Shown: piece by piece, positions 38,104 through 58,610 of the stretch
How positions within the stretch are numbered: the stretch's first letter is position 1
Layout: every line of letters starts with the position of its first letter
NCBI GenBank assembly: GCA_035545475.1
Contig: DASZYI010000144.1
Span: 15,306 to 79,305, forward strand
Direction: 5' to 3'
DNA length: 64,000 nucleotides
From: Rhizomicrobium sp.
GTDB lineage: Bacteria; Pseudomonadota; Alphaproteobacteria; Micropepsales; Micropepsaceae
The notes under the pieces: model-generated
What the model was told of the DNA's origin: nothing
The model's database searches: none
Seen by the model: the letters and a program-made list of their open reading frames with translations, nothing else
Translations under genes and position numbers: made by a program

Positions 38104-38136
38104 GCAGACAACAGGACGCGCGGGGAGGACTTCTCT

Positions 38137-39033: not shown

Positions 39034-39110
39034 AAGAATTCTCCCCGATCGCAGTGTTTGTACCGTCCAAAATCGACTTATTTCATCAGATTAATATCAA
39101 AGATTTTCAT

Positions 39111-39155: not shown

Positions 39156-39160
39156 CTGCG

Positions 39161-40020: not shown

Positions 40021-40362
40021 CGCCGATTTTGTTGAAGAAGTCGCGCATGGGTCGAGTGGGGTGACGCGGCCTGCGATGTGCCGAGCGGATTGGGCTGTGT
40101 TTGTTAGGATCAGTTTGGCATTGGCTGTGGGTTGGGGATCAGCTTTGCCAGTTTCCTGAGGTTCTGGGCGGTTGCGGCAAGCAGGAACTCATCGCGGGCA
40201 CCGCAAGGCCCTCGCAATCGCAGCCGGCCCAACCGCAGGATGCGTTTGAGATGGGCGAACAGCATCTCGACCTTCTTCCGTTCGCGACGTGAGACTATGT
40301 AGGCATCTGTCCTGGCGATCTCGCGGGCTACGTCGCGAGCGCCTTCGTAGATGCTGCGAGGC
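40021..40362 (-). mobile_element. IS1182-family remnant: transposase C-terminus plus right end
   Basis: RRERKKVEMLFAHLKRILRLGRLRLRGPCGARDEFLLAATAQNLRKLAK; terminal ACTTCTTCAACAAAATCGGC on the minus strand. Confidence 0.8.
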
Positions 40363-40531
40363 AAAAAGCTGCTTAGCGCCACCCCTTGGTACGAGCTAGC
40401 TCTGTGGAAGTTGCCGCCTCCCCGCTACAGTCCACCGATCACGAGGAAAATCCGTCGCCTAGCTCAATTCGGCTTGATGCTCCGTAAGGGGCAGGTCCGA
40501 ATATCGGTGCGGCAACCGAGACCAGCATGGC

Positions 40532-41917
40532 CTATGCGTTCATATACTGGTCCAGCGTCATGTGGTGGCGGCGTATTCGCATCTCGAGGTAATGCCCCAA
40601 ATTCATGACTCCGATCTCGGATGCCTCGATACCCTTTTGAACCGCTTCCATATTCGCCCAGTCTTGATCAATTACAGCGCCTAACCCGCCCAATTCCTCG
40701 GCACTGGCCCAAGGCTCGTCTTCTGCGAGAAGACGCATTGGCATAGGCTTGGGGCGCGGCGTGTCTCTCGGCACCCTCTTCAAAATATAGATCTCCATCA
40801 TCGACTCGTCGTGCGCGCGATTTACGGGCCGCCAGCGATAAATATAATTCGGCGCAAAACCACCCCAAAACGCCATATTGGGGAAAACATTATAGATCAA
40901 AGAATCGCCCAGTTCGCAGTCCGCAACATGCTCGTGGCTGTAACCTGTCTCTCCTTCAAGCGCTTTCCGAGTAATGTCGGCGACATAAGAACGAGCGGTC
41001 ATTCCGGGAGGCACTTTGTGACTTACTTTTCCCGACATGGCGCGCATTCTAGAGCCCTGACTTAATAGAGCCCCCGCAATTTCGTCTTCGGAGAGCTTAC
41101 GATCCTTGATGAACGGACTTTGGTGGCCCCTCCCACTGATGTGCCGCGTAACGTGGTCGCTGAATACGTCGTACTGCGCGTTCGCATCGGTGATAAATGG
41201 AAGTATTTGCGGATGCGTAGCAATATCGTGATGCGTTTCCATGAACGCTTCCGCAGTCACATTCCAATTCGCTTTCGTCCTTTTTGCGACATGTGCAGCG
41301 ATATATTTGTCTTCAAACGTCCATCTTTCGAAATGATCGGGAATCGGCCCGAGTGCGGTTTCGAGTGGTGGCGCGTCGAGATCGAAATTGATGAAGACAA
41401 AGCCGCCCCACCGGGCCACTTTGGCTTCCGGCAACTGCATCTTCTCGGGAGGACAGTGCGGGAAGTCCCATTGAATGGGGTTCTCCAGGAATGTGCCATC
41501 GTTTTTCCAAGTAAACCCATGGAAGGCGCACCGAAACTCGGCCTTATTGCCCTCCATTGTTACTAACTTCCGGCCGCGATGCAGGCAGGAATTGTGCAAT
41601 GCTTTGATCTCATCGGGCCCGGAACGTACGACAATGAGGGATTTTCCGACGATCTCATAAAGAAGGAAGTTTCCCACTTCCGGAATTTCTTCTTCACGGC
41701 ATGCCATTTGCCATGTCTTCAACCACATCTTGCTGATGGACCGGTTGAAATACTCCTGGCTGACATATCTATCGACGGTCACCGGCGCCGTGCCGAGATC
41801 GGGCACTCTTCGTTCGCGCAACGCAGCCGGGACGGGCCGCGTGTCGCGGTCCAATATCTCCTGGTAATTGATGGCGTCACATTGAGCCATCGTCGATGGA
41901 ATAAAGCGATCGTTCAT
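40532..41917 (-). CDS. Rieske non-heme iron oxygenase alpha subunit 1
   Basis: SCLHRG and CAFHG Rieske ligands; EAFMETHHDIATHP and DQD mononuclear Fe ligands. Confidence 0.92.
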   Translation of the reverse strand: MNDRFIPSTMAQCDAINYQEILDRDTRPVPAALRERRVPDLGTAPVTVDRYVSQEYFNRSISKMWLKTWQMACREEEIPEVGNFLLYEIVGKSLIVVRSGPDEIKALHNSCLHRGRKLVTMEGNKAEFRCAFHGFTWKNDGTFLENPIQWDFPHCPPEKMQLPEAKVARWGGFVFINFDLDAPPLETALGPIPDHFERWTFEDKYIAAHVAKRTKANWNVTAEAFMETHHDIATHPQILPFITDANAQYDVFSDHVTRHISGRGHQSPFIKDRKLSEDEIAGALLSQGSRMRAMSGKVSHKVPPGMTARSYVADITRKALEGETGYSHEHVADCELGDSLIYNVFPNMAFWGGFAPNYIYRWRPVNRAHDESMMEIYILKRVPRDTPRPKPMPMRLLAEDEPWASAEELGGLGAVIDQDWANMEAVQKGIEASEIGVMNLGHYLEMRIRRHHMTLDQYMNA

Positions 41918-41965
41918 TAGAGAGCTCCTCCGGAGGCTTCGGCCCGCGATCTCAGGGCTCGAGCT

Positions 41966-41985
41966 TTATTACTGACCTGCCAAAA
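41966..41985. promoter_or_regulatory. Operator B copy upstream of Rieske 1 (TTATTACTG-AC-CTGCCAAAA)
   Basis: Matches consensus TTTTKRCAG-N2-CTGYMAAAA. Confidence 0.55.
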
Positions 41986-42119
41986 AGATACAGCGGAGAC
42001 TTTGATTTCGCAAGCAAGTCCGCTGCTTCGCGAAAACCCCTATACATAGGCCCCACAAGCAAAGAACGCCCTCTTCGCCCAGAGTGGCGGTCGCGTGCCC
42101 GTGCTCAAACATGTCGACT

Positions 42120-42337
42120 TTATGATACATCTGCCAAATTATTTTCTTGCGGCGGCGCAGCAGTGATCGAGCGCGCTGCCGCGCCCTTTATACGGCTTAA
42201 GGTTGATATTTCTATTTTTTCCCGTGTTTCCTGGGTCGATTTTGACCCTTTTACATCGAAAGCAACCCAGTTTGACCGGACTGCAAGGTGTGTCAGGCAC
42301 GATGTTGTAATTTGACTTTATGGCGTTTCTGTCAAAA
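42120..42337. promoter_or_regulatory. Two weaker operator B copies upstream of TBDR2 (42120-42139 and 42318-42337)
   Basis: TTATGATAC-AT-CTGCCAAAT; TTATGGCGT-TT-CTGTCAAAA. Confidence 0.45.
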
Positions 42338-42387
42338 ACTTTCAGAATCGAAATCTCGCCTTAGAAAAATCAGAGAGGGGAAACGTC

Positions 42388-44796
42388 ATGTACCACCGAG
42401 CTGCCCTTTTGGGCACATGCGCAACCATTTGCCTAATCGCAACGCCGATTTTTGGCCAGGTGAGCCCTCCTCCGACAGCGCCAGCGATGGTCGGCTCGAA
42501 CATCGAAACAGTTGTCGTAACCGCGCGAAAACGCGACGAACGATTGCTCGATGTGCCTGTTTCGGCGAGTGCAATGGATGGGGCAGCACTTGATCGCTAC
42601 GCCACCACCGACCTCACCAGCTTGGGAACGCAAATGCCTTCCCTGCAGGTCGATCAGGCATCCTCAGGGAATCGCGCAATTATTACCGTGCGCGGTATCA
42701 GTTCCACGTCTGGTGACGCTGGTATCGAGCAAGAGGTTACCGTTAATGTCGATGGGGTCCCGATTAGCCGTGGCAGCGTGATTCAAGACGCATTTTTTGA
42801 CGAGGACTCTATCGCGGTGCTGAAGGGGCCTCAGGCACTCTATTTTGGCAAGAACAGCCCTGCAGGCGTCATCGCTATCACCAGCGTCGATCCTGCCGAC
42901 CATTTTGAGGGTTACGCGCGAGCTGGCTTCGAAGCTGAGACTCAACAACTTTTCGGCGAAGCCGCAGTATCCCTCCCTATCACGGACGATTTCGGCGCCC
43001 GACTCGCCGTGAGGGCAAGCGATATGTTCGGCGGCTATATCCATAACGTCGCTGGCCCAATCACCGACCCCGCTGCCCTGCCGGCAAATCTTGTTGCAAT
43101 GGGACTTACCCTGCCCGGTGCCCCGGACTCACAATCTCCGCAAAACAAGGAAATTGCGGGGAGACTGACGCTGAAATATGCGCCAGATGGAAGGTTCGAC
43201 GCCACCTTCAAAGTTCTTGTTAGCGATTTCCGCGACGCTGGCATCACAGGTAATGCCGTCTTTTTCCATTGTGCCGATGGTTTCTCCCGTCCACAGGTTT
43301 TGGATTACGGAGGCAGCAATACCTATAAACAAGATCCATACGGCAGCTGTTCTCCGGGCAATGGCCAGTCTGCTGTCGGCACAGTTCCAGCATTTTTCGC
43401 TGATCACTATCCCGGGTCGCATGGCACGATTCCATATGATCATTTTCCGACCTATATTAGTTCGCTCGTAATGAACTATCGGGTGACACCGGATGTTGTG
43501 CTGACATCCACGACAGGGTTCTTCAACGTTGGAGAAACCTCTTTCGGAACGCTCGATTATACCACTCTCGCCGAGGCAACTGGCCGTAACAATGACTTCA
43601 ACTCTGCTCTCAATGAAGAACTTCGAGTCGTTACGGCTTTCGACGGACCGTTAAACTTCACGGGTGGTCTGTTCTACGAACAGACTCGCAGAGCTTTTCT
43701 GCAAAACACAATGCTGGGATATCTCGGCATAGATCCAGCGACAGGCCTTTCCACGTTCAGCGCATCTCATGACAATTTTACGGGAAATACTCTCTCGGCA
43801 TATGGAGAGCTGAGCTGGAAAATCGCACCAAATCTAGAACTTGCCGGCGGTGCGCGATATACAGCAGAGCACAAGGGCGGTACGGCAGAGAACACCTATG
43901 TCTTTCCGGGCAAGGGAGCGGCGTATCTTCCTGTTGGCCAAGTTCTTACCCCCAACCTCGCAGAGCACAACGTTTCCCCTCAGGCCACGCTGACTTGGCA
44001 CGTAACACCGGACGTTATGCTTTATGCGGCCTACAAGACGGGTTTCAAATCGGGTGGCATCCAAACGCCTACGCGGTACTCGAAAATTGCCAACTCCGAG
44101 AATATTGTTTTCAATCAAGAGACCGTTACCGGTGGTGAAGTTGGCCTTAAATTCCAGCAAATGGACGGGATGCTTACAGGGGACATAACCGGCTATCACT
44201 ATAGCTACAAGGGCCTTCAGCTGACAGCCTATGACGTTTCGTCTGCGACGTTCTTTACCCAGAACGCGGGCTCAGCCCAGGACGATGGACTTGAAGCGAA
44301 TGTCAACTATCAGGTGATGCCCGGTCTACTGCTTCGCAGCACCGTAAATTACAATAGCGCCAAATATACGGACTTCCCCGACGCGCAATGCTTCACAGGG
44401 CAGACAGTCGCTGAGGGCTGTGTTGCGGGATTACAAAATCTAAGCGGAACACCCCTGCCGCGCGCGCCGCATTGGACCGGCGATGTCGGAGTGAACTATG
44501 ATACCAGCCTGACCGGAGACTGGATGATCGGGGCGACTGCTGATCTAAGATTCAGTTCCAAATACCAAGCGTCGGGAAATTATAGCCCATGGGGTTTCCA
44601 AAACTCTTTCCAGACCTTCAACGCAAGCTTGCGGGTTTACGATGATCAATGGGAAGCCGCTTTAATCGGAACGAATCTCTCCAACACCATTTACGCCGTG
44701 TTGAAACAGGATCAGGTCCTCGGCCCGCGCGGAGATATAAATGGGTTCATCGGGCAAACCCGCCAGATCACGATGCAGATTACGCGCCGATTCTAA
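42388..44796 (+). CDS. TonB-dependent receptor 2
   Basis: Signal peptide, ETVVVTARKR, VLKGPQALYFGKNSPAG, C-terminal Phe. Confidence 0.93.
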   Translation: MYHRAALLGTCATICLIATPIFGQVSPPPTAPAMVGSNIETVVVTARKRDERLLDVPVSASAMDGAALDRYATTDLTSLGTQMPSLQVDQASSGNRAIITVRGISSTSGDAGIEQEVTVNVDGVPISRGSVIQDAFFDEDSIAVLKGPQALYFGKNSPAGVIAITSVDPADHFEGYARAGFEAETQQLFGEAAVSLPITDDFGARLAVRASDMFGGYIHNVAGPITDPAALPANLVAMGLTLPGAPDSQSPQNKEIAGRLTLKYAPDGRFDATFKVLVSDFRDAGITGNAVFFHCADGFSRPQVLDYGGSNTYKQDPYGSCSPGNGQSAVGTVPAFFADHYPGSHGTIPYDHFPTYISSLVMNYRVTPDVVLTSTTGFFNVGETSFGTLDYTTLAEATGRNNDFNSALNEELRVVTAFDGPLNFTGGLFYEQTRRAFLQNTMLGYLGIDPATGLSTFSASHDNFTGNTLSAYGELSWKIAPNLELAGGARYTAEHKGGTAENTYVFPGKGAAYLPVGQVLTPNLAEHNVSPQATLTWHVTPDVMLYAAYKTGFKSGGIQTPTRYSKIANSENIVFNQETVTGGEVGLKFQQMDGMLTGDITGYHYSYKGLQLTAYDVSSATFFTQNAGSAQDDGLEANVNYQVMPGLLLRSTVNYNSAKYTDFPDAQCFTGQTVAEGCVAGLQNLSGTPLPRAPHWTGDVGVNYDTSLTGDWMIGATADLRFSSKYQASGNYSPWGFQNSFQTFNASLRVYDDQWEAALIGTNLSNTIYAVLKQDQVLGPRGDINGFIGQTRQITMQITRRF

Positions 44797-44804
44797 GGCC
44801 AACC

Positions 44805-44828
44805 CCGGGCGGCAGGAGTGCCGCCCGG
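44805..44828. terminator. Hairpin between convergent TBDR2 and CMD1
   Basis: CCGGGCGGCA-GGAG-TGCCGCCCGG, perfect 10-bp stem. Confidence 0.65.
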
Positions 44829-44849
44829 ATTTCCCAAGACCCACTTCCT

Positions 44850-45401
44850 CTAGCGATAGTCGCGTAAATGCCTAAGTCCGCTTCGGTTCTCGAGAGGAAT
44901 ATGCAGTGTCGTCAGCATCATCGCCACCAGAGAGAACTCGGCGATCGTCATCATAAAATCAATAAGCTGCTGCGAGCTGTAGTGCTGCTCTAGGGATCGC
45001 CAAAGTCTTTCGCAAATCGGCTTTCGATCAAGAACTTCGTCCGTAGCCTCGATAACTACTGCTTCCTTTTCCGACCAATGAGAATCTCCCGGCCCCTCAA
45101 CTATCGCCTTTAGATCGGCCTCCGTCATGCCAATTTCGATGGCGAGAGCAGCATGCAACCCCCATTCGTAATCGCTGTTCCACGCGGCAGCTACACGAAG
45201 GATTATGATTTCGCGGTCCCGTTCCGGCAACGAGTTGCCTCGCAGGACCTTTTCCGCCCACGGCAGCCAAAGTCCGAGCATTTCGGGGCTATGGGCCAAT
45301 GTGCGATGCAAATTCATATTCCAAGCCTTAACCACCTCTACCGCGGGTCCTCGCAGTTCTTCGTCTGCAAGAACCTTCAATCTCGGATTTTCGCTTGTCA
45401 T
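44850..45401 (-). CDS. Carboxymuconolactone-decarboxylase/AhpD-like protein 1 (no CxxC)
   Basis: NLHRTLAHSPE, LPERDREIIILRVA, YEWGLH. Confidence 0.85.
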   Translation of the reverse strand: MTSENPRLKVLADEELRGPAVEVVKAWNMNLHRTLAHSPEMLGLWLPWAEKVLRGNSLPERDREIIILRVAAAWNSDYEWGLHAALAIEIGMTEADLKAIVEGPGDSHWSEKEAVVIEATDEVLDRKPICERLWRSLEQHYSSQQLIDFMMTIAEFSLVAMMLTTLHIPLENRSGLRHLRDYR

Positions 45402-45426
45402 ATTAACCTCCTATGGGTTGGAGGCA

Positions 45427-45446
45427 TTTAGGCAGACTTGTCAAAA
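45427..45446. promoter_or_regulatory. Operator B copy upstream of CMD1 (TTTAGGCAG-AC-TTGTCAAAA)
   Basis: Matches consensus; 26 nt from the start codon. Confidence 0.55.
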
Positions 45447-45463
45447 ACCTGCAATGAGATTGC

Positions 45464-46189
45464 CTACCGTCCTCTACGGCGTCGGGATCCGTCTTTCTTC
45501 GAAATAGCGGCGCCCAAAACCTTATCCCCCTCGAGAGTTCCAACGAGGACCTTTAGGAAAGCAAGTAATTCGCCTTCGCGGTCCTGTGCGTTGTATGATA
45601 ACCCTCGCTGCATAGCGAAGCCTTCCAAAAGAAATCGGAATATGTCCCGCCGCAAATTGAACCAGGGCGCCGACTTCTGTTCTTCGGTGAAGCTTATGAG
45701 GGAGAGTTCCCTCCTTGCGCGATCGTATTCGGCAAGCGCCGGCTCGAAAATTGACGAAAGATCATCGTCGGTATGCGCAGCGATCAGCAATTCCGTGAAT
45801 GCCGCGAAGGCATTTGTCTGAAGATGCTTCCACGCCAAATCCACAATTGTGATTGGGTCGAATATCTTCTGCTCGATGACATCCTTGACGTACATGTCCA
45901 GGCGGCATCTCATGATTTGATACACGGTCCCTTCAATAAGAGAGCTACGAGACGGAAAGTGATAAAGCATTGCTGTGCGAGTTAGCCCTGCGCGCAAAGC
46001 AACTGTGCTGGTAGTCGTGCCAGCATAGCCAGTTTCCGCAAGGCAATCGATCGCCGCGTTCAATATGCGCAACCGCGTCTTGCTACTCTTCGAGAGTTCG
46101 CCTTTGGCTATGCGGGTTGGATCAGGTAGGTGAAGAACGATCGCGTTTTTTTCCTCCCTATCCTTCTTTTTTGATTTTCGCCTGACCAT
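45464..46189 (-). CDS. TetR/AcrR-family regulator (start uncertain)
   Basis: TRLRILNAAIDCLAETGYAGTTTSTVALRAGLTRTAMLYHFPSR. Confidence 0.9.
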   Translation of the reverse strand: MVRRKSKKKDREEKNAIVLHLPDPTRIAKGELSKSSKTRLRILNAAIDCLAETGYAGTTTSTVALRAGLTRTAMLYHFPSRSSLIEGTVYQIMRCRLDMYVKDVIEQKIFDPITIVDLAWKHLQTNAFAAFTELLIAAHTDDDLSSIFEPALAEYDRARRELSLISFTEEQKSAPWFNLRRDIFRFLLEGFAMQRGLSYNAQDREGELLAFLKVLVGTLEGDKVLGAAISKKDGSRRRRGR

Positions 46190-46283
46190 TCCCCCACACC
46201 CTAAGAGCAACAGTTGAAGCTAGTTGGTAACGGCCCCTATGAAAAGACCGAATTCAACCTCTTGGCCAGGTGCTTGGTTCGTT

Positions 46284-47048
46284 TCAGAAATTGACCCGCT
46301 TTGTGAACCCGCCATCGATCACAAGGTTTGCGCCCGTCACAAATCCCGCGATCGGGCTTGCCAGAAAAACAACAGCTGCCGCGACCTCGTCAGCCGTGCC
46401 CATCCTGCCTATCGGGATCTGCGATAAAGCCCTCTCATAAACCTGCGGATTGGCCTTCTTGATATTATCCCAGCCGCCACCCTCTACAAATATGGGACCA
46501 GGCGAAACCGAATTGGCCCGTATCCGCTTGGGGGCGAGCATGTTACTTAGATTTTTCATATAGTTTATCAGACCGGCCTTCATGACGTTGTATGGCTGCG
46601 GCACGCGGAACGCTTCAACCGCTGCGGTACTTGAAATAATCGTAATCGCCCCCTCGCCTGCCTGTTCGAGAAAGGGAAGGGAAGCCTCGACCGTATGAAC
46701 TGTCCCCAGCATGTCGACCTCGAAGTTTTGGCGCCATGCTTCCAAACTTGTGCGTCCACCTCCCCCAGCACTGACGTTAGGTACCACGATGTCGAGGCCG
46801 CCCAATTCGCTTGCCGCGTCAAAAATCCATTTCCGAAGCGCCTCTCCGTTCGCCACGTCCACTGCAGCACTCACCACCTTTATGCCAGGACGAGCCAATG
46901 TCCGAGCGGCCTCCTTCACTCCACTCTCCTCCCGAGCGCATACTGCAACATGTACGCCTTCATTTACCAGGAGTTGCGCGATTGCACGGCCGATACCGCG
47001 CGATCCACCTGTCACGAGTGCGCGTTTTCCCTTTAAACGGAGGTCCAT
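46284..47048 (-). CDS. Short-chain dehydrogenase/reductase
   Basis: VTGGSRGIG, ISS, YNVMKAG, ANSVSPG. Confidence 0.92.
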   Translation of the reverse strand: MDLRLKGKRALVTGGSRGIGRAIAQLLVNEGVHVAVCAREESGVKEAARTLARPGIKVVSAAVDVANGEALRKWIFDAASELGGLDIVVPNVSAGGGGRTSLEAWRQNFEVDMLGTVHTVEASLPFLEQAGEGAITIISSTAAVEAFRVPQPYNVMKAGLINYMKNLSNMLAPKRIRANSVSPGPIFVEGGGWDNIKKANPQVYERALSQIPIGRMGTADEVAAAVVFLASPIAGFVTGANLVIDGGFTKRVNF

Positions 47049-48430
47049 AAGTTTCTCCCTTGTGAATTTGAAAGTTGTGAAGTCAGAACGGGTGTTGTCA
47101 CTTCCGGCGTGCCGGAGGGGATGTCTAGAAATGACCGAAGGGGGGCAAGTACGCGCAGCAGCATCAACACTGCTACCGGCAGGGTCAGCAGTGCGAAGAC
47201 AATTAGGGAGTACCGAATCGATTGCTCATCGAAAATGTGGTCGGTGATGTATCCAACCGCAAGCGGGCCAATGCCCAAGCCCAGGATGTTTACAAAGAAT
47301 AAATATCCGGCCGTGATCTGACCACGCATTCGATTGGGCACAACCATCTGTATGGTAGCGGCCGCGAGTGGAAACGGGGCTTGCAGAAAAAAGGTCGACA
47401 CACCTTGAAGGGCCAAGGCCGTGATGCCATCAGGGGCCAGAAGCGCGGCGACGCAAAATGGTATCGAAATGGCGATACAGGCAAGTGCCGTTTGAACTAG
47501 CGCATCGCGACGGCCCCTCGAAAGAAGCCAGTCCGCGATGAAGGCGCTGGCAATCGGACCCAGGCAGCCCGTTACGATACCGATCGCGCCCGATACGAGT
47601 CCCACCGAGGATGTCGACCATCCGTATGTGCGCACGACAAATGCCGGGGCCCACACGGCCTGAGCCTGGCCATAAAGAGTGCAGAATCCCATGCCCACAA
47701 TCAAAGATGCCAGCAGGGTGCGATGCGACAAAAAATAGTGCCAGACCGTCCTAACCTTATGGTGCCCCTCGGTGTCGGGAACGCTCAATCCGTCATTGGT
47801 CAAATTGGTGCGCTTTGGCTCGGTAACGGTAAACGCCATAAGCAGAGCGACAAGCACTCCGGGTGCAGCCGCCGCAAGAAAAGTAGCGCGCCAAGCGGGA
47901 ATGACTCCGACCACTGGCAACGCTATTTGGCTCCCCTCACCGATCGCGCGGATCAGCAGTCCCCCGCCGATAAACGCCAGCCCGGAACCTAGGAACCCCC
48001 CGGTAATAATCACACCAATCGCACGAGACAGCATGTTGCGCGGCATGTAGTCGGCCACACTCGACATAGCGGTCGGATAGACAACGGCTTCTCCGATTCC
48101 GACACCGACCCGTGCAAAGAACAGTCCGTAAAATCCCTTTGCAACGCTGCATACGGCCGTTGCCAGAGTCCAAACCACGATGCCGGTGGTCGCTATCCAT
48201 TTGCGCGGAAAGCGATCCACCATTCGCCCCACGGGTAAACTGAAGGTCGCATAAGCGAGTCCAAAACAAAGCCCCGTGAGCACCCCCATTTCGACGTCGG
48301 TAAATCCAAGATCCTTTTTTATGGGCTGCACGAGCAGAGTCAGCATGGCCCGATCCGCATAGGAAAGGGCGTTTGTCACCGCGTAAATCGTGACCACATA
48401 CCACGCCAATTTTCTTGACGGTCTCGTCAT
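47033..48430 (-). CDS. MFS transporter (spinster/aromatic-acid-type)
   Basis: SYADRAMLTLLVQPIKKDL, GRMVDRFPRK, ARVGVGIGEA. Confidence 0.9.
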   Translation of the reverse strand: MTRPSRKLAWYVVTIYAVTNALSYADRAMLTLLVQPIKKDLGFTDVEMGVLTGLCFGLAYATFSLPVGRMVDRFPRKWIATTGIVVWTLATAVCSVAKGFYGLFFARVGVGIGEAVVYPTAMSSVADYMPRNMLSRAIGVIITGGFLGSGLAFIGGGLLIRAIGEGSQIALPVVGVIPAWRATFLAAAAPGVLVALLMAFTVTEPKRTNLTNDGLSVPDTEGHHKVRTVWHYFLSHRTLLASLIVGMGFCTLYGQAQAVWAPAFVVRTYGWSTSSVGLVSGAIGIVTGCLGPIASAFIADWLLSRGRRDALVQTALACIAISIPFCVAALLAPDGITALALQGVSTFFLQAPFPLAAATIQMVVPNRMRGQITAGYLFFVNILGLGIGPLAVGYITDHIFDEQSIRYSLIVFALLTLPVAVLMLLRVLAPLRSFLDIPSGTPEVTTPVLTSQLSNSQGRNLWTSV

Positions 48431-48503
48431 GCGCGACAACATTCCTCGACGTCGGCGTCCCTCATCAATCCAGATTGTCGGTGCCGCCCGCCCCGGTCAA
48501 GCT

Positions 48504-48617
48504 TTTTGGCAAATTTGCTATATTTCCAAAATGCCAGACGTTGCTGCGCCGCAATAAGCCTCTGGGAAGGCTCCGGGCAGCTTTTGCCTTGACCAGATTT
48601 TTACAGACCTGTACAAA
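48504..48617. promoter_or_regulatory. Divergent MFS/acoA control region: operator B copies at 48504-48523 and 48598-48617; promoter TTGACC-N17-TACAAA (48589-48617)
   Basis: TTTTTACAG-AC-CTGTACAAA is an 8/9 palindrome overlapping the -10; TTTTGGCAA-AT-TTGCTATAT is a weaker copy. Confidence 0.65.
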
Positions 48618-48666
48618 TCATTCAATACCACAACATTTGCGAACCGTTCGGTTCTTGGGAGGCAAG

Positions 48667-49632
48667 ATGCAACTCACGCGGAATCAGCTTCTCGAAGCAT
48701 ATCGGAGAATGAAACGCATTCGGGAGTTCGAAGAGCGAGTTCATGCGGAGTTCTCAAGGGGAAACATTCCCGGGTTCTGTCACTTGTACGCCGGGCAGGA
48801 GGCATCGGGTGTGGGAGCATGCATTCATCTGGGCGACCTTGACTGGATTGCATCGACACACCGGGGCCATGGCCACTGCATTGCTAAGGGCTGCGAAATC
48901 GACGGCATGATGTCGGAAATTTTCGGCAAGGATCGCGGGGTCTGCCGGGGCAAGGGCGGCTCGATGCACATTGCCGATCTGTCAAAAGGTATGCTCGGCG
49001 CCAATGCCATTGTCGGCGGAAACCCTCCGTTGGTTATAGGGGCCGCATTGAGCAACAAAGCCCTTAGGAACGGGAAGGTAGCCGTTTCATTCACGGGCGA
49101 CGGTGGTGCAAACCAGGGGACAACGTTCGAATCCATGAATCTCGCGGTCGTCCTGAAATTACCCGCAATCTTTGTGCTGGAGAACAATGGATACGGTGAA
49201 GGAACGGGATTCAGCTATCATTGCGGAGCCAAGAGCCTGGCAGAACGCGCGGCCGCCTTTGGAATGCCCGCCGTAACGGTGGACGGCACCGATTTCTTTG
49301 CCGTGGCCGAAGCCATGCGAGATGCGATTGCGCGCGCTCAAGCCGGGAAAGGACCTTCCGCGATCGAAACAATCTGCCCGCGCTTTTATGGTCATTTTGT
49401 CGGCGATCCCCAACTCTACCGTTCGAAAGCGGAAATCGAAATAGCTCGCAAGAACGACCCGTTGCGGAAATTTCGCGAACGCGTAGCGGAAATGCGCATT
49501 GTCGATCTCTCGCTGCTCGACGTCATCGACCAGGAAGTCGCACAGGAAATTGAGGATGCCGTGATAGCTGCCAGCGCCGCTTCGTGGCCCGACATCGGTC
49601 AACTGGATACAGACGTCTACGTCGCTTACTGA
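48667..49632 (+). CDS. acoA: TPP-dependent dehydrogenase E1 alpha, acetoin-dehydrogenase (AcoA) type
   Basis: IPGFCHLYAGQEA, STHRGHGH, GDGGANQG, RFYGHFVGD; start taken at ATG 48667. Confidence 0.85.
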   Translation: MQLTRNQLLEAYRRMKRIREFEERVHAEFSRGNIPGFCHLYAGQEASGVGACIHLGDLDWIASTHRGHGHCIAKGCEIDGMMSEIFGKDRGVCRGKGGSMHIADLSKGMLGANAIVGGNPPLVIGAALSNKALRNGKVAVSFTGDGGANQGTTFESMNLAVVLKLPAIFVLENNGYGEGTGFSYHCGAKSLAERAAAFGMPAVTVDGTDFFAVAEAMRDAIARAQAGKGPSAIETICPRFYGHFVGDPQLYRSKAEIEIARKNDPLRKFRERVAEMRIVDLSLLDVIDQEVAQEIEDAVIAASAASWPDIGQLDTDVYVAY

Positions 49633-49663
49633 CGGCATAGTCCGTTAATTCGGGAGCCCCTAT

Positions 49664-50671
49664 ATGCCTAAAAAGAGTTACCGCAAGGCCATAAACGAGG
49701 CCATCGCGCAAGAGATGCGGCGGGACACAACGGTCGTGGTAATTGGCGAAGATGTCGCCGGTGGACAAGGCGGCACCGGTGAAATCGACGCCTATGGCGG
49801 CGTCTTGGGTGTGACGAAAGGCTTGATCGGCGAATTCGGCGAAGATCGGGTCATCGATACGCCGATCACCGAGTCCGGCTTCATCGGTATGGCGGCCGGC
49901 GCCGCATGTACCGGACTTAGACCGGTCGTTGAATTGATGTTCGTGGATTTCATCGGCGTCTGTTTCGACCAGATATTCAACCAAGCAGCAAAGTTCCGCT
50001 ATATGTTCGGCGGAAAAGCTCGCACGCCATTGGTCATACGATCGATGATTGGCGGTGGGTTGCGCGCCGCGGCACAGCACAGCCAGACACTTCATTCGAT
50101 TTTTACGCATGTACCAGGCCTAAAAGTGGTCATGCCATCGAGCCCTTACGACGCCAAAGGGCTGCTCATTCAGGCTATTCGTGACGATGACCCAGTTATC
50201 TTCCTCGAGCACAAGACGCTTTATGACATCGAAGAGGACGTTCCTGACGGTAGCTATACGATACCTTTTGGCGAGGCGACGGCGACCCGCGAGGGCGATG
50301 ATGTGACGATTGTCGCGCTTTCCGCAATGGTACATCGTGCCAATGCCGTAGCCGACAAGTTGGCAAAAGAGAATATTTCCGTCGAAGTCATCGATCCCCG
50401 CACCACGTCACCATTTGATGAACATGCGGTGTTGGAAAGTATCTCGCGAACCGGCCGCTTGGTCATCGTCGATGAAGACACTCCACGCTGCAGCATGGCC
50501 AGCGATATCGCGGCATTGGCTGCTGAAAGAGGCTTTTCGTCGCTGACCGCGCCGGTGCTGCGAGTCACATGTCCCCATACGCCAGTTCCCTTCTCACCCA
50601 CGTTGGAGGACGCCTATATGCCGTCCGCGGCGCGCATCGAAACGGCCGTTCGGCAGTGTCTCGGTAGTTGA
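49664..50671 (+). CDS. acoB: TPP-dependent dehydrogenase E1 beta, AcoB type
   Basis: DTPITESG, ELMFVDF, AAQHSQ, FLEHK. Confidence 0.85.
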   Translation: MPKKSYRKAINEAIAQEMRRDTTVVVIGEDVAGGQGGTGEIDAYGGVLGVTKGLIGEFGEDRVIDTPITESGFIGMAAGAACTGLRPVVELMFVDFIGVCFDQIFNQAAKFRYMFGGKARTPLVIRSMIGGGLRAAAQHSQTLHSIFTHVPGLKVVMPSSPYDAKGLLIQAIRDDDPVIFLEHKTLYDIEEDVPDGSYTIPFGEATATREGDDVTIVALSAMVHRANAVADKLAKENISVEVIDPRTTSPFDEHAVLESISRTGRLVIVDEDTPRCSMASDIAALAAERGFSSLTAPVLRVTCPHTPVPFSPTLEDAYMPSAARIETAVRQCLGS

Positions 50672-50716
50672 TCGCTGCAAAAAGCAAGCTGAATAAATCA
50701 TTCTTGGAGATCACAG

Positions 50717-51832
50717 ATGACTTTGCATGCCGTCACGGTCCCAAAATGGGGGCTAGCGATGGAAGAAGGGCAAATCGTTCATTGGTATGTCGCCCCCGGG
50801 GCTCGCGTTTCCACTGGCGACGCGCTTGTGGACATCGAGACGCCGAAAATCACAAATACGTTGGAGGCTGAAGGGCCGGGAACAATTCGTCGCATTCTTG
50901 GCGCAGAGGGTGAGACCCTTCCGTGCGGACAAGTTATCGCGGTACTTGACGATGGGGAATCCGGCGAGCCCGACGTCGACGATTTCGTCAAGAATGCGAT
51001 TCTCAGCCTCGAGGCAAAACATCCCGAGGAAACTACTGGTAAAACGCTCAGGCCCGCTCTCGTTGACGTAGGCAGTGGCAGCCTAAATTACCTGGCGATG
51101 GGCGCACCCACGGATTTGTCGATCATACTGATCCATGGGTTCGGCGGAGACCTAAACAATTGGATGTTTAACCAGCCCGTGCTCGCAGCGGCAGGTCGTA
51201 CCATTTCTTTCGATCTGCCGGGGCATGGAGGATCGACAAAGACGGTGGGAAATGGATCGATCGACGAGTTAGCTTTGAGGATTTCCGTCGCTTTGAAATC
51301 CCTCCAACTCGAAAGATTCCACTTGGTCGGACACTCCCTCGGTGGTGCAGTCGCATCTAAGGTCGCCGCGTCTGTTCCCGGAAGCTGCGCATCCCTCACG
51401 CTGATCAGTTCCGCGGGCCTCGGAGAGGAGATCAACGGTGACTACCTCGAGGCGTTTGTCGTCGCAAAGCGGCGTAGGGAATTGCAGAAAGTTCTTGAAA
51501 GCCTGTTTGCGGACCCGTCCCTCGTTACATCTGATATGGCAGAAGAGATTTTGCGTGCGAAACGGTTAGATGGTGCCGAGGCCGCGTTACGCCAGGTTTT
51601 GGCAGCCAATTTCGCGGACTCCCGCCAGCTGTTTGGCCTGCGAGAGCAAATAATTCATCTCGACATTCCCATAATGACGATCTGGGGTGAAAGTGATCTG
51701 ATCATTCCGGCAACGCACAGCAACGGACTTCCCGGAAGTACTCAAGTGCTGGCGGAGACCGGACATATGGCACATATCGAAAAAGCGGCCGAGGTGAATA
51801 CCCTGATCGCCAAACATATTGCCGCGGCGTAG
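50717..51832 (+). CDS. acoC: AcoC-type protein: lipoyl domain fused to alpha/beta-hydrolase fold
   Basis: PKWGLAMEEG, IETPKI lipoyl Lys, HGFGGDLNNW, GHSLGG, GHMAH. Confidence 0.85.
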   Translation: MTLHAVTVPKWGLAMEEGQIVHWYVAPGARVSTGDALVDIETPKITNTLEAEGPGTIRRILGAEGETLPCGQVIAVLDDGESGEPDVDDFVKNAILSLEAKHPEETTGKTLRPALVDVGSGSLNYLAMGAPTDLSIILIHGFGGDLNNWMFNQPVLAAAGRTISFDLPGHGGSTKTVGNGSIDELALRISVALKSLQLERFHLVGHSLGGAVASKVAASVPGSCASLTLISSAGLGEEINGDYLEAFVVAKRRRELQKVLESLFADPSLVTSDMAEEILRAKRLDGAEAALRQVLAANFADSRQLFGLREQIIHLDIPIMTIWGESDLIIPATHSNGLPGSTQVLAETGHMAHIEKAAEVNTLIAKHIAAA

Positions 51833-51845
51833 TGAGGGCAGCCAT

Positions 51846-52448
51846 TCATTTAAACCGTTTCATGAACGGCGCAGGGCCATTGATATCGGACGGTAATATA
51901 GGCAACGGGACCGCGTCAGGAGGGAGTGGAACGCCGTCGGCGTTGAGGATCAATGACACGGCACAATAGTAACCCGCGAGAGCGACCAAATCTGCGGTGA
52001 TAGTATCGCCAAACCGAGCTCTGACGGAGTTGAAGACTTCATCCGAGATATGTCCACGGCATACAAGCTCGCTGACAAAGTCGAACACTTTGGCTTCATC
52101 CGCGTCCATTTCCGCGGGTCTGTACCCTCCGCCAATCGCGTCGCATTTGGCTCGATCCAAACCCGCTTCGATAGCGAGGCTGCTGTGAATGTGCCATTCG
52201 AATTGTGCAGTCCACGCGCGCGCCACAATTATGATGGCAAGTTCCTTGAGCTTTTTTGGCAATCCGCTCTCAAAACGCAAATACCCGCCAAGATGCTCAA
52301 AGGCCATGGCAAGTTTCGGACTCCTCAACAGAAGATTCGCCGGTCCGCCAATCGCGCCTCTGCTTTTCACCCATGCATCGCGGGCCTCGCGTTGCTCGTT
52401 GCTCATATCTCGTGGTTCGAGCGGACCAAACCTGTTGCCAGAGCTCAT
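51846..52448 (-). CDS. Carboxymuconolactone-decarboxylase/AhpD-like protein 2 (no CxxC)
   Basis: GPANLLLRSP, LPKKLKELAIIIVAR, FEWHIH. Confidence 0.85.
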   Translation of the reverse strand: MSSGNRFGPLEPRDMSNEQREARDAWVKSRGAIGGPANLLLRSPKLAMAFEHLGGYLRFESGLPKKLKELAIIIVARAWTAQFEWHIHSSLAIEAGLDRAKCDAIGGGYRPAEMDADEAKVFDFVSELVCRGHISDEVFNSVRARFGDTITADLVALAGYYCAVSLILNADGVPLPPDAVPLPILPSDINGPAPFMKRFK

Positions 52449-52513
52449 TTAGAAACCTCCAATCCCGGCGGAATCGCTTGCGATCTATGAATCACTCTTT
52501 TCTCGGGTCCTCT

Positions 52514-52533
52514 TATTTACTACTCTGTAAAAA
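52514..52533. promoter_or_regulatory. Operator B copy between divergent CMD2 and Rieske 2 (TATTTACTA-CT-CTGTAAAAA)
   Basis: Right half-site is a perfect match to the consensus. Confidence 0.55.
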
Positions 52534-52578
52534 AGTATTCTGCCGGCCGGCGGCAGTGCTGACAAGCAGGTGATTGAA

Positions 52579-53988
52579 ATGAAAAAACTGCTAACTTCTT
52601 CCAATCACCCGACGCGCAAAGATCGATGCGACGCGATTTCCTATCAGGAACTGCTCGATCGAGACACGATGCCGGTGCCGGCAGCCCTCCGCGAACAATC
52701 GGAACCCGATTTGGGAACGAGTGGAATTCCGATCGAACACTATACCAGCCAGGATTATTTCGATCGCTCGGTCGGCAGGATGTGGCTAAAGACCTGGCAA
52801 ATGGCATGCCGCGAACAGGATATTCCGGAAGTGGGAAATTTTGTTCTCTACGAAGTGGTCGGAAAATCCCTCATCATCGTACGTTCCGGGGCTGATCAGA
52901 TCAAAGCGTTGCACAACTCCTGTCTGCACCGGGGTCGCAAGCTCGTGACACTGGAAGGCAGCAAGTCCGACTTCCACTGCCCCTTTCATGGGCTCGTCTG
53001 GAAGAACGACGGTACGTTTCTGGAAAATCCGATCCAATGGGACTTCCCGCAGTGTCCGGCTGAGGAGATGCGGCTGCCGGAAGCCAAAGTCGCCAGATGG
53101 GGCGGATTTGTGTTCATCAATTTCGACCTCGATGCCCCCTCACTCGAAAGTACCCTAGGACCTATCCCAAAACACTTCGAAAGATGGGACATAGAAAATC
53201 GTTACAAGGCCGCGCATGTGGGTAAAATCATAGCGTGCAATTGGATGGTCGCACTTGAGGCTTTCATAGAGGCACACCATTCACTCACGACCCATCCCCA
53301 AATACTCATGTGTTCCGGAGATGCCAATGCCCAGCACGATATCTTTAGCGATCACGTAACGAGGATGATAAGCGCGAAGGCTACGCCGAGTCCGTTCCTC
53401 GGCGACCGGATTGTTACGGAGGACGAGATAGTGCGGTGCATGGTCGGTCGCGTTCGTGGCGGACGTGGTTTCGTAGACCAGGACTCTTTCCCAAAGGCGG
53501 AAAAAATCGTGCCAGAAGAGACAACCGCTCGGGCCTATCTGGCCAGCTTTGCTCGGGCCGCTCTCAGGTCGGAGACAGGGATCGATCACAGCATTGCGTC
53601 CGACGCCGAACTTGGAGACTCCATTCTCTACAATGTCTTTCCGAACTTGACCTTATGGGGAGGCTTCTTGCCCAATTTGGTCTATCGTTGGAGACCAAAT
53701 GGCCTCGACCATGCATCTTGCCTGATGGAAGTAATGATATTGAGACCACGCTCAAAGGGAACTGCACCAAAATCATCGCAGTTCCATTTGTTGAAAGAGG
53801 ATGAAGCTTGGGCGGATGCGGAAGAACTCGGTGGCTTGGGCGCAATTATCGATCAAGACATGGGGAATATGCCATTCGTTCAGCAGGGTCTCGTCGCTGC
53901 CGTTGGCAGAACCATCGAAGTCGGCAAATATTCGGAGAGTCGCATACGGGCACATCACATTACCTTGACGAGGTATGTGGAGGGTTGA
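52579..53988 (+). CDS. Rieske non-heme iron oxygenase alpha subunit 2 (paralog of 40532-41917)
   Basis: SCLHRG, CPFHG, EAFIEAHHSLTTHP, DQD. Confidence 0.92.
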   Translation: MKKLLTSSNHPTRKDRCDAISYQELLDRDTMPVPAALREQSEPDLGTSGIPIEHYTSQDYFDRSVGRMWLKTWQMACREQDIPEVGNFVLYEVVGKSLIIVRSGADQIKALHNSCLHRGRKLVTLEGSKSDFHCPFHGLVWKNDGTFLENPIQWDFPQCPAEEMRLPEAKVARWGGFVFINFDLDAPSLESTLGPIPKHFERWDIENRYKAAHVGKIIACNWMVALEAFIEAHHSLTTHPQILMCSGDANAQHDIFSDHVTRMISAKATPSPFLGDRIVTEDEIVRCMVGRVRGGRGFVDQDSFPKAEKIVPEETTARAYLASFARAALRSETGIDHSIASDAELGDSILYNVFPNLTLWGGFLPNLVYRWRPNGLDHASCLMEVMILRPRSKGTAPKSSQFHLLKEDEAWADAEELGGLGAIIDQDMGNMPFVQQGLVAAVGRTIEVGKYSESRIRAHHITLTRYVEG

Positions 53989-54310: not shown

Positions 54311-54724
54311 ATGCCTGCCGATATGACAGATGCGAAGCCCGGGGTAACGCAAATCCTGGCGGCCATCGTCGAGACTTCGCACGACGCGATTATCAGCAAA
54401 GATCTGAACGGCATCATTTCAAGTTGGAACAGGAGCGCTACGCATCTCTTTGGATACGCTCCTGATGAGATCATCGGTCGCCCGGTTACGATTCTCATTC
54501 CGCCGGATAGGCAAGATGAGGAAACACACATCCTTGGCATGGTTCGTCGCGGGGAGCGTGTGGATTCATACGAGACCATTCGGCAGCGCAAGGATGGAAG
54601 CCTTGTAGAGGTCTCCCTAACAGTATCGCCGATCAAGGATTCGGAAGGCCGAGTTGTCGGCGCTTCTAAGATCGCACGCGACATCACAGAATTGAAAAAA
54701 GCGAGGAAACAACAAGAGCTTCTA
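54311..54724 (+). pseudogene. PAS domain of a sensor kinase, truncated just before the expected kinase H-box
   Basis: AAIVETSHDAIISKDLNGIISSWN...SKIARDITELKKARKQQELL, then unrelated sequence. Confidence 0.8.
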
Positions 54725-54725
54725 C

Positions 54726-55031
54726 GGCGGCGTCGATCTGGTGTTCGACGTCATCGGCGGCGAGATCGGCAAGCAATCCGCACGTCTCATTCGAGCTGGA
54801 GGAACGGTCGTGTCCATCGTCGGTCCGCCCGTGCCGCGGCCCGATGACGGTTTGGCGGTCGACTTCGTTGTCGAGACAGATCGCGCTCAACTGACCGAGA
54901 TCGTCAACCTGGTGCGGGATGGACGATTGCGGACGAACATCGGCGATGTCTCATCTCTCGATGATGCTATCGCTGCGTTAAACCCGACCGGGCGACGCAA
55001 GGGGAAGACGATTATCCGCGTTCGTCAGTAA
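54726..55031 (+). pseudogene. C-terminal fragment of an NADP-dependent oxidoreductase (zeta-crystallin/MDR family)
   Basis: GGVDLVFDVIGGEI...LVRDGRLRTNIG...RKGKTIIRVR; no N-terminal part. Confidence 0.8.
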
Positions 55032-58600: not shown

Positions 58601-58610
58601 TGGCCTGCAA

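Follow-up and report, generated by a model that had tools for sequence, protein, structure and literature searches.

Alpha-only Rieske oxygenase genes and an AcoABC-type complex recur together and share a predicted operator in a Rhizomicrobium locus

What would an acetoin dehydrogenase-type complex (AcoABC) do between two Rieske oxygenase genes? This question is raised by a 64-kb stretch of the Rhizomicrobium sp. contig DASZYI010000144.1 (the window, by which we mean the whole stretch of DNA that was analysed), whose interval 40532-53988 encodes both, together with two proteins of the CMD family. An earlier reading of this DNA, which we call the original prediction, proposed that hydroxylation or dealkylation gives an acyloin or diketone that is then cleaved by a thiamine pyrophosphate (TPP)-dependent enzyme, a scheme that family assignments, its sole basis, make plausible. 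The analysis described here gives good support to a coupling of the aco and Rieske genes in one unit, as opposed to a chance neighbourhood. We also propose, tentatively and with slightly less than an even chance of being right, that the interval forms the core of a single catabolic regulon under repressor control, in which the Rieske enzymes and a short-chain dehydrogenase/reductase (SDR) would make an alpha-hydroxyketone and the Aco-type complex would cleave it. The open reading frames (ORFs) of the window, comprising all of the larger and several of the smaller ones, were scanned with Pfam, and NCBIfam was also used, which gave the following map of the cassette.

40532-41917, minus strand: Rieske1, Rieske oxygenase alpha subunit of 461 aa (Pfam Rieske and Ring_hydroxyl_A)
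42388-44796, plus strand: TonB-dependent outer-membrane receptor of 802 aa (Pfam Plug and TonB_dep_Rec_b-barrel), found in the same place in the contig L087 described below
44850-45401, minus strand: CMD1, 183 aa (Pfam CMD)
45464-46210, minus strand: TetR-family regulator (Pfam TetR_N)
46284-47048, minus strand: classical SDR oxidoreductase of 254 aa (Pfam match)
47033-48442, minus strand: major facilitator superfamily (MFS) transporter (Pfam MFS_1), overlapping the SDR gene by 16 nt
48667-49632, plus strand: E1alpha (AcoA family), 321 aa (Pfam E1_dh)
49664-50671, plus strand: E1beta (AcoB family), 335 aa (Pfam Transket_pyr and Transketolase_C)
50717-51832, plus strand: AcoC (Pfam Biotin_lipoyl and Abhydrolase_1)
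51846-52448, minus strand: CMD2, CMD-family protein of 200 aa
52570-53988, plus strand: Rieske2, paralogue of Rieske1 (Pfam Rieske and Ring_hydroxyl_A)

The two outward-facing Rieske alpha genes that had been said to bracket the cassette were borne out in coordinates and orientation by Pfam, and the SDR, MFS, AcoAB and AcoC genes of the original prediction were all located at their mapped positions by Pfam or NCBIfam. Its gene list for the interval was not complete, as the TonB-dependent receptor and the TetR regulator had been omitted. The ORF start listed for E1alpha (48415) was over-extended and was replaced by 48667, which gives a protein of 321 aa as in its relatives. Since its database product has 469 aa, Rieske2 probably begins at the ATG at 52579. 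The statement that no beta subunit or ring-cleavage dioxygenase is present held across the scanned ORFs of the 64-kb window, among which no E3 was found either. The parallel statement on ferredoxin and reductase held for the cassette but not for the window, where such a pair lies at 4036-5630.

Gene neighbourhoods were then compared. The Rieske locus set comprised 80 loci kept of more than 590, and 81 non-redundant loci together with the window make up the 82 sources referred to below. Failure of the Rieske, CMD and acoABC combination to recur in other genomes had been named as grounds for giving up the proposal; the neighbourhoods show that the combination does repeat. The fullest repeat is L087, a 13.8-kb metagenome contig with the complete order CMD2-like / AcoC-E1beta-E1alpha / MFS-SDR-TetR-CMD1-like / receptor / Rieske and with identities to the window of 81% (Rieske), 74% (CMD1) and 87% (E1alpha). 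The loci L004/L098, L008/L100 and L099 encode receptor-TetR-P450-ThuA-SDR-SDR-MFS / E1alpha-E1beta-AcoC-Rieske-SDR-MDR, where P450 stands for a cytochrome P450 and MDR for a medium-chain dehydrogenase/reductase. The contig P0131 has AcoC-E1alpha-E1beta-TetR-CMD, a different gene order. Contiguous SDR-CMD-Rieske genes without E1 were found in L088 and the contig P0128, Rieske-cupin-SDR-CMD, also without E1, in L001, and ThuA-CMD-SDR beside Rieske-P450-TetR-MFS-SDR in L091 and L092. A P450 gene recurs with the Rieske clade in L004, L088, L091 and L092. The original prediction had not recognised the combination as a described pathway, and likewise our literature search found no description of Rieske, acoABC and CMD genes together.

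The cultured Caenimonas aquaedulcis (L090) carries TctC, a fused E1alpha-beta, IclR, Rieske, an esterase and a reductase of the phthalate dioxygenase reductase (PDR) type, in that order. Here (7162-13208) E1alpha and E1beta form a single protein of 673 aa with no E2 nearby, the reductase consists of Fer2 and NAD_binding_1 domains, and the esterase is an esterase-like alpha/beta hydrolase. The fusion is a hint that a lipoyl carrier may be dispensable for the TPP enzyme, and the locus shows which type of reductase (PDR) is able to serve this Rieske clade.

In a tree of the 81 Rieske homologues both window genes fell within one clade of nine tips, and all nine had CMD and/or E1 within 10 kb. The test was also run in reverse, from AcoC, using 80 metagenome relatives. 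Rieske, SDR, MFS, TetR and receptor genes accompanied all three with 57% identity. No Rieske, CMD, MFS or TetR homologue was present in the remaining 77 (41-49% identity; 30 loci of at least 8 kb; 577 kb in total). Because of this break, 3/3 against 0/77, the Rieske-linked AcoABC is treated as a distinct subclade. The SDR family is the steadiest partner of the Rieske family, being present in 45 of the 82 sources, window included, and orthologues of the window SDR in L001, L004 and L008 showed 70-74% identity.

A second line of evidence is a 16-bp imperfect palindrome, TTKACAGNNCTGTMAA, which is common to the divergent MFS/E1alpha and CMD2/Rieske2 promoter regions. When the whole window was searched with at most three mismatches, 12 matches were obtained against 3.66 +/- 2.22 expected, and none of 100 shuffles reached 12. 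Intergenic DNA, which makes up 11.8% of the window, held eight of the 12 matches, all eight at promoter positions, and the binomial chance of at least 8/12 falling there is ~1e-5 by our own arithmetic. Composition-matched permuted palindromes (n = 400) gave 0.74 +/- 0.95 intergenic matches with a maximum of five, against the eight observed. A scan for consensus promoters and terminators showed no enrichment. The sites are as follows, no strand being assigned to them.

41968-41983: operator-like palindrome ATTACTGACCTGCCAA, upstream of Rieske1
42272-42287: operator-like palindrome TTGACCGGACTGCAAG, upstream of the TonB-dependent receptor at 42388
45429-45444: operator-like site TAGGCAGACTTGTCAA, between TetR and CMD1, upstream of CMD1
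48600-48615: best operator copy TTTACAGACCTGTACA, one mismatch, in the divergent MFS/E1alpha promoter region
52516-52531: operator copy TTTACTACTCTGTAAA, two mismatches, in the divergent CMD2/Rieske2 promoter region
60989-61004: operator-like site TTGACAGAATTGTCCG, between a TonB receptor (58620-60824, minus strand) and an old yellow enzyme (OYE; 61042-62154, plus strand)
32747-32762 and 34954-34969: operator-like sites of cassette A (a neighbouring gene group described below), upstream of the receptor at 30428 and of the P450 operon

The palindrome was also found in the related loci. L087 has a perfect copy in its E1alpha/MFS region and further sites at TetR/CMD and upstream of Rieske; L004/L098 and L099 have two copies each in MFS/E1alpha; and L008 has it in MFS/E1alpha and AcoC/Rieske. 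Two copies lie upstream of CMD-Rieske in L088, and in L092 it precedes both ThuA-CMD-SDR and Rieske-P450. Its density was 0.19 per kb in the window compared to 0.021 per kb in canonical AcoC loci. The TetR protein of the cluster, which has orthologues of ~60% in L001, L004 and L008, is probably the repressor that binds it, as far as binding can be read from sequence. Since they share the palindrome pattern, the aco genes, both Rieske genes, CMD1, the transporters and cassette A are predicted to form one regulon, which within cassette A would take in at least the receptor and P450 operons. A common palindrome before the aco, Rieske and CMD genes argues against a regulation of aco that is independent of the Rieske genes. 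We found no description in the literature of a shared operator joining aco and Rieske genes.

The next step was to ask what the complex itself is. E1alpha has the TPP motif GDGGANQG...ENNGY (GDG...NN) and is 61-65% identical to its counterparts in annotated acetoin operons of Klebsiella, Acinetobacter and Rhodococcus, which have the canonical organisation. The contexts of these canonical genes were taken from annotated plasmid records: the Acinetobacter and Rhodococcus operons include acetoin reductase and 2,3-butanediol dehydrogenase, and that of Klebsiella a LuxR-type regulator with E1alpha/beta-E2-LpdA. E1beta scored 354.7 bits against NCBIfam NF006667 (cut-off 321), and AcoC scored 413.8 bits against the equivalog NF011457 for the acetoin-system E2 (cut-off 307), matching at full length over residues 2-370. 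AcoC is an N-terminal lipoyl domain (probable lipoyl-Lys44 in IETPKI) fused to an acyltransferase of the alpha/beta-hydrolase fold (GHSLGG). This type is known from the acoXABC genes of Cupriavidus necator and Pseudomonas putida, and acoABCD/L operons are known from Klebsiella, Acinetobacter and Rhodococcus. By its sequence, then, the E1alpha/E1beta/AcoC complex of the window is a member of the AcoABC family. In a neighbour-joining tree of E1alpha the canonical AcoA proteins were nested among clades linked to Rieske or DUF35 genes, and the window, L087, L004 and L008 formed a subclade of their own, sister to canonical AcoA. As E1alpha is so near to that of canonical acetoin operons, the acyloin might be small, even acetoin freed from a side chain.

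The complex may instead be a 2-oxoacid dehydrogenase that oxidatively decarboxylates a late 2-oxoacid of the pathway, such as one left by oxidation and ring opening, to an acyl-CoA for beta-oxidation-like steps, so that no acyloin is involved. The E1 fold and its NCBIfam hits are held in common with pyruvate dehydrogenase E1, an AMP-ligase gene follows the Rieske gene in L087, and in a sister Rieske clade (below) E1 sits with a 2-oxoacid_dh E2 and an E3 beside genes for a ligase, DUF35, an SCPx-type thiolase and acyl-CoA dehydrogenases (ACADs). We nevertheless regard this use as unlikely, since E1alpha groups with the AcoA of acetoin operons, at the 61-65% identity given above, and not with the E1 of pyruvate or branched-chain 2-oxoacid dehydrogenases, and since AcoC lies above the cut-off of the acetoin-system equivalog.

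The same two matches could be taken to mean that acoABC is a plain acetoin/2,3-butanediol operon that lies inside a catabolic island and has no biochemical tie to the Rieske and CMD genes, as could the fact that several Rieske/CMD loci have no E1. This is improbable, and more so than a 2-oxoacid dehydrogenase, for four reasons. Only the AcoC subclade nearest to the window is Rieske-linked (3/3 against 0/77). The link survives rearrangement, as seen in the gene order of P0131 and the fused E1 of Caenimonas. The aco promoter bears the same palindrome as the Rieske promoters. Finally, no sigma-54 or LuxR-type aco regulator, acoX, annotated acetoin or butanediol dehydrogenase or reductase, or E3 gene was found in the window, and the same was true of L004, L087 and L099.

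The Rieske proteins were examined for the chemistry that they might feed into this complex. Rieske1 and Rieske2 showed 60% identity at full length; their Rieske domains were 80% and their catalytic domains 40-61% identical, which agreed with the original prediction of identical stretches in the one and divergence in the other; the peptides it had quoted are present in both proteins. These peptides turned out to be family-wide motifs, and the locus scan chose NSCLHRGR[KR] and WGGFVF[IV]N as the most conserved patterns. At the DNA level the identical stretches had just 70-89% nucleotide identity. Because they thus differ at synonymous sites, the two genes are considered to be old paralogues under purifying selection, and a recent duplication or gene conversion was ruled out by these values and by their separate branches in the clade.

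An alignment of 60 sequences showed the cluster ligands of Rieske1 (C111, H113, C130 and H133; CxH...CxxH) to be invariant, as were H230, H235 and D419. E227-x2-H230-x4-H235 aligned with the E-x2-H-x4-H motif of CntA, and the motif was invariant across the family; D419 would be the carboxylate ligand of the 2-His-1-carboxylate site of the mononuclear iron. The CntA alignment also placed a Glu at the bridging position, as in alpha-only monooxygenases, and not the Asp of classical dioxygenases. The AlphaFold2 (AF2) model of Rieske1 had a pLDDT of 91.4, and its nearest structures were CntA and Stc2 with a TMq of 0.60-0.63 and 16-17% identity, a match that barely exceeds that of alpha3beta3 dioxygenases. 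The best NCBIfam match was GbcA, at 96.5 bits against a cut-off of 670 and over the N-terminal half only (residues 50-250). Similarity at the N-terminus to the alpha subunits of phthalate and biphenyl dioxygenases was also seen. Of the examined candidates, 2,742 proteins fell into the family at E <= 1e-20, and over 590 of its loci were found in reference genomes. It is alpha-only throughout the 80 loci, and no characterised member of it was found. A KshA-like steroid hydroxylase (Sphingobium Chol11) was considered as well; it belongs to a different Rieske family and gave no support.

CntA, Stc2 and GbcA are carnitine, stachydrine and glycine betaine monooxygenases, respectively. The window enzymes might accordingly be taken for N- or O-dealkylating monooxygenases of that kind, acting on a quaternary amine or a methoxylated compound whose carbon skeleton would go on to the Aco-type complex. 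The structural and NCBIfam matches point in this direction, as do the bridging Glu of the E-x2-H-x4-H motif and the uniform lack of a beta subunit. We think it as improbable as a plain acetoin operon: the match to CntA and Stc2 is hardly better than that to alpha3beta3 dioxygenases, the window has no genes for the handling of methylamine, formaldehyde or betaine, and the P450, Baeyer-Villiger monooxygenases (BVMOs), OYE, MDR enone reductases and SDRs suggest a chemistry of hydrophobic ketones and alcohols. A classical aromatic ring-hydroxylating dioxygenase pathway, with its beta subunit, ferredoxin, reductase and ring-cleavage dioxygenase elsewhere in the genome, could draw on the Ring_hydroxyl_A match, on the N-terminal similarity to phthalate and biphenyl dioxygenases and on an SDR, the most constant partner, that could serve as cis-diol dehydrogenase, but it is very unlikely given that the family is alpha-only across 80 loci with a bridging Glu in place of Asp, that neither the scanned ORFs of the window nor the gene tables of close relatives contain a beta subunit, and that the sole ring-cleavage-type gene is a BphC/glyoxalase-like one ~8.5 kb from Rieske in L090.

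The original prediction described twin, Cys-less CMD proteins with a (Y/F)EWxxH motif and no CxxC. The motif is present (DYEWGLH in CMD1, QFEWHIH in CMD2) and CxxC is absent from both, but at just 28% identity they are hardly twins, and neither is free of cysteine, CMD1 having one (C130) and CMD2 three. A family alignment showed E64, E79, W80 and H83 of CMD1 to be invariant, so that an E...EW..H signature is kept. The AF2 model of CMD1 (pLDDT 96.8) has the AhpD/CMD fold, with TM-scores of up to 0.78-0.79 to Streptococcus pneumoniae AhpD and 0.74-0.79 to SMU.961, and shares 12-21% identity with solved structures. Neither protein matched the PcaC equivalog; in NCBIfam, CMD1 had only weak matches of the YciW-related and peroxidase-related kind and CMD2 had no match, which leaves the general Pfam CMD domain. 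Without CxxC, CMD1 is not an AhpD-type thiol peroxidase. Its family, a small one of 27 proteins found, nearly always occurs together with the Rieske clade of the window: the contexts that were read contained the same Rieske clade and/or the AcoC-E1 set, and orthologues of ~64-74% adjoin Rieske genes in L001, L087, L088 and the P0128 contig. An orthologue of CMD2 in a matching context was found only in L087 (58-59% identity). The linkage to the Rieske clade is therefore strong for CMD1 and weak for CMD2.

We return to the proposal of a repressor-controlled regulon in which an alpha-hydroxyketone is made and cleaved. Its substrate would be an organic acid, probably alicyclic or terpenoid-like or else an aryl-alkyl ketone, taken up through the TonB-dependent receptor and an anion-type MFS permease. 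An imported organic acid is proposed because the best subfamily match of the MFS protein is to anion:cation symporters (the D-galactonate transporter model TIGR00893, at 120 bits and under the cut-off) and because TctC binding proteins stand in its place in L088, L090 and the P0128 contig. The set of enzymes encoded, namely P450, Rieske, several SDRs, OYE/MDR enone reductases, BVMOs and a lactonase-type amidohydrolase, suits the oxidation of alicyclic or alkyl-ketone structures better than that of arenes, and there is no indication of aromatic substrates. The two alpha-only Rieske paralogues, with diverged substrate pockets, would oxygenate unactivated carbons using electrons from a general ferredoxin/ferredoxin-reductase pair. 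The SDR may then oxidise the resulting alcohol so that a hydroxyl stands beside a carbonyl (an acyloin), if the reactions run in this order, and the Aco-type subclade, with its TPP-dependent E1alpha/beta and lipoylated AcoC, would cut the C-C bond to give an aldehyde and an acyl-CoA, for which an E3 encoded elsewhere would be needed. CMD1 would be a dedicated partner; a role as decarboxylase, as isomerase or in lactone handling is a guess. The TetR of the cluster is envisaged as repressing all of these units via TTKACAGNNCTGTMAA. Substrate clues from the nearest PDB relatives of the SDR, P450 and CMD1 were all generic and were dropped.

Several observations weigh against this proposal. The palindrome was derived from two of the eight intergenic sites and is to that extent post hoc. 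The window E1alpha is as similar to that of canonical acetoin operons as orthologues often are, and the substrate of the complex could be acetoin itself or a very close analogue. An E3, a lipoate-handling gene and a dedicated Rieske reductase are all missing from the cluster, and there is no operator-like site near the ferredoxin/reductase pair. L001, L088, L091 and L092 have Rieske, CMD and SDR genes without E1, which makes the Aco step optional to the core. CMD2 was rejected as a constant partner beyond L087, its remoter relatives lying in unrelated contexts. L004, L008, L087 and L099 may be fairly close kin of the window organism, so that these instances are not fully independent, and the synteny of ACAD_2 and MarR with the window is also seen in L004; the arrangements in Caenimonas, P0131 and L091/L092 are more independent support for recurrence. 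Lastly, the window DNA was detected solely in soil and rhizosphere DNA metagenomes and no RNA run containing it was found.

The remainder of the window contains the following features.

4036-4356, minus strand: [2Fe-2S] ferredoxin of adrenodoxin/putidaredoxin type, 106 aa (Fer2)
4380-5630, minus strand: ferredoxin reductase, 416 aa (Pfam Pyr_redox_2 and Reductase_C)
22861-36801, minus strand: cassette A, comprising AMP-ligase, MFS, BVMO, amidohydrolase_2, BVMO, TonB receptor, SDR, P450 and amidohydrolase_3 (Pfam and PDB matches)
40110-40382, minus strand: remnant of a DDE transposase of the IS5/IS1182 type, C-terminal part (Pfam DDE_Tnp_1_6, only profile positions 57-124 of 125), downstream of Rieske1 at the rearranged left edge of the cassette
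54311-54847, plus strand: isolated PAS-domain ORF at the cassette flank
54741-55031, plus strand: C-terminal remnant of a zinc-type MDR dehydrogenase, downstream of Rieske2
57401-58600, plus strand: OYE-type flavin oxidoreductase (Oxidored_FMN, 225 bits)
61042-62154, plus strand: second OYE

One BVMO of cassette A (28727-30418, minus strand) closely resembles phenylacetone monooxygenase (E ~1e-188) and the steroid monooxygenase of Rhodococcus (1e-181); the second and longer one lies at 25697-27667. The two belong to an operon with P450, SDR, amidohydrolase_2, MFS and AMP-ligase genes that appears to have the operator motif in common with the cassette. Phenylacetone and steroid monooxygenases (PAMO/STMO) act on methyl ketones. 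The first 21 kb of the window have a housekeeping gene order (ahcY, tsaE, APH/NTP-transferase, addB, addA, ribF) that looks alphaproteobacterial. The ferredoxin/reductase pair is located there, 35 kb upstream of the cassette, flanked by tsaE and the gene for a PAS histidine kinase. Its proteins are likely to be general electron donors for the P450 and possibly for the Rieske oxygenases. A tblastn search with the PDR-type reductase of L090 and the Rieske ferredoxin of L013 gave no match in the window. A small ORF downstream of Rieske1, considered as a ferredoxin, was rejected, as it is the transposase remnant; an AMP-ligase gene occupies this position after the Rieske gene in L087, and an SDR and an intact MDR gene follow the Rieske gene in L004. 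This suggests that the cassette edges were rearranged by insertion sequence (IS) activity. The 425-aa ORF at 57386-58663 (minus strand) has no family match and is spurious, the real gene being the OYE on the plus strand. Between cassette A and the Rieske/aco cassette, 37639-39934 encodes an AsnC/Lrp regulator, a PhyH-family Fe(II)/2-oxoglutarate dioxygenase and an SDR; no operator-like site was found in this region, which may thus be a separate unit.

Across the wider family, E1alpha or E1beta homologues were found within 10 kb of the Rieske gene in ~20 of 81 non-redundant loci, in several architectures and phyla. With a few E1 operons per genome, the rough expectation for a random 20-kb window is 1-2%. 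The companions counted across the 82 sources were, besides SDR (45), acyl-CoA dehydrogenase (26), SCPx-type thiolase (25), DUF35 (24), CoA ligase (24), TetR (23), MDR enone-reductase-like (21), SnoaL-like (20) and E1alpha (15). A sister Rieske clade (43-50% identity) was found in Halioxenophilus, Zhongshania, Pseudomaricurvus, Luminiphilus, other Halieaceae and some Alphaproteobacteria. Its operon consists of TetR / E1alpha-E1beta-E2 (2-oxoacid_dh type)-E3-DUF35 (ChsH2-like OB/zinc ribbon)-SCPx-type thiolase-Rieske, often with a CoA ligase, and is located as follows.

L031, 2104-11347: sister-clade operon of Halioxenophilus aromaticivorans KU68F; also present in L032, L033, L035, L039, L057, L059, L010 and L011

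No description of this marine E1/E2/E3-DUF35-thiolase-Rieske operon was found in the literature. In the sister clade, by analogy to the ipf pathway discussed below, the arrangement suggests that the Rieske enzyme acts on CoA thioesters and that a C-C bond is then cleaved by a thiolytic or aldolytic step. A different arrangement was seen on two plasmids, pNL2 of Novosphingobium aromaticivorans DSM 12444 (L178, 153.5-173.7 kb) and p1 of Novosphingobium sp. ES2-1 (L094), which encode up to three Rieske-family paralogues, one of them overlapping a gene with a ThuA domain, amid several SDR genes and genes for VOC, NTF2-like, FAD oxidoreductase, GMC oxidoreductase, OB-fold and thiolase proteins. ThuA also adjoins CMD or P450 in L004, L091 and L092.

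Each of the component superfamilies is known and the assembly is new. The novelty lies in three features: a distinct AcoABC subclade is coupled, in a conserved manner, to an uncharacterised Rieske clade of the alpha-only kind and to a CMD protein lacking CxxC; the genes are predicted to share an operator; and marine bacteria have a parallel operon with AcoABCL, DUF35, thiolase and Rieske genes. Catabolic islands of this kind are common in soil Alphaproteobacteria. Members of the Rieske family are numerous in Caulobacterales and Sphingomonadales from soil and in Halieaceae and Luminiphilus from the sea, groups that are credited with the turnover of recalcitrant organic matter of alicyclic and terpenoid nature. 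It is possible, though we doubt it more than the reading of the interval itself, that these loci represent a widespread undescribed strategy, in which an alpha-only Rieske enzyme and an SDR would turn C-H/C-H or C=C bonds of non-aromatic (alicyclic, terpenoid-like, carboxyl-rich) compounds into an alpha-hydroxyketone that an Aco-type complex would cut in the place of ring-cleavage dioxygenases. It would exist in two forms: CMD and AcoC would mark that of Alpha- and Betaproteobacteria in soil, and DUF35, thiolase and AcoABCL that of Halieaceae, Zhongshania, Luminiphilus and other marine Gammaproteobacteria. If the proposed chemistry is right, thousands of genes annotated as 'aromatic ring-hydroxylating dioxygenase subunit alpha' would gain a function, the substrate range of Aco-type complexes would reach beyond acetoin, and the TetR/operator pair could be used as a biosensor for the inducer. 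The model is testable in cultured carriers, namely Caenimonas aquaedulcis, Halioxenophilus aromaticivorans KU68F, Zhongshania spp., Pseudomaricurvus hydrocarbonicus and Novosphingobium aromaticivorans (pNL2).

Compared to known systems, the all-helical fold of CMD1 is that of AhpD and gamma-carboxymuconolactone decarboxylase (PF02627). With CntA, Stc2 and GbcA the window Rieske proteins share the absence of a beta subunit, the CxH...CxxH ligands, the E-x2-H-x4-H motif with its bridging Glu and the Ring_hydroxyl_A domain. They differ in being ~70-100 residues longer, with a conserved N-terminal extension (YQEILDRDTRPVP...), and in a context that lacks amine or C1 metabolism and has no adjoining reductase except the PDR-type one in L090.

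In the ibuprofen-CoA pathway of Sphingomonas Ibu-2, ipfABDEF encode a CoA ligase, a Rieske oxygenase, DUF35 and an SCPx-type thiolase, IpfA having the beta subunit IpfB. The sister-clade operons share DUF35, the SCPx-type thiolase and often the CoA ligase with ipf, and the marine ones add a complete AcoABCL-like complex; the window has neither DUF35 nor thiolase. In common with the classical bph, nah and tod pathways, the locus would use a Rieske oxygenase, then an SDR, then a dedicated C-C cleaving enzyme. In contrast to them it has no beta subunit and no extradiol or intradiol dioxygenase, and a TPP/lipoyl complex would fill the C-C cleaving position. This complex has the E1alpha/E1beta/AcoC domain architecture, the TPP motif and the lipoyl domain of the AcoABC acetoin dehydrogenase system; it differs from canonical AcoABC in forming a separate subclade, set among Rieske, CMD, SDR, TetR and transporter genes with a shared predicted operator.

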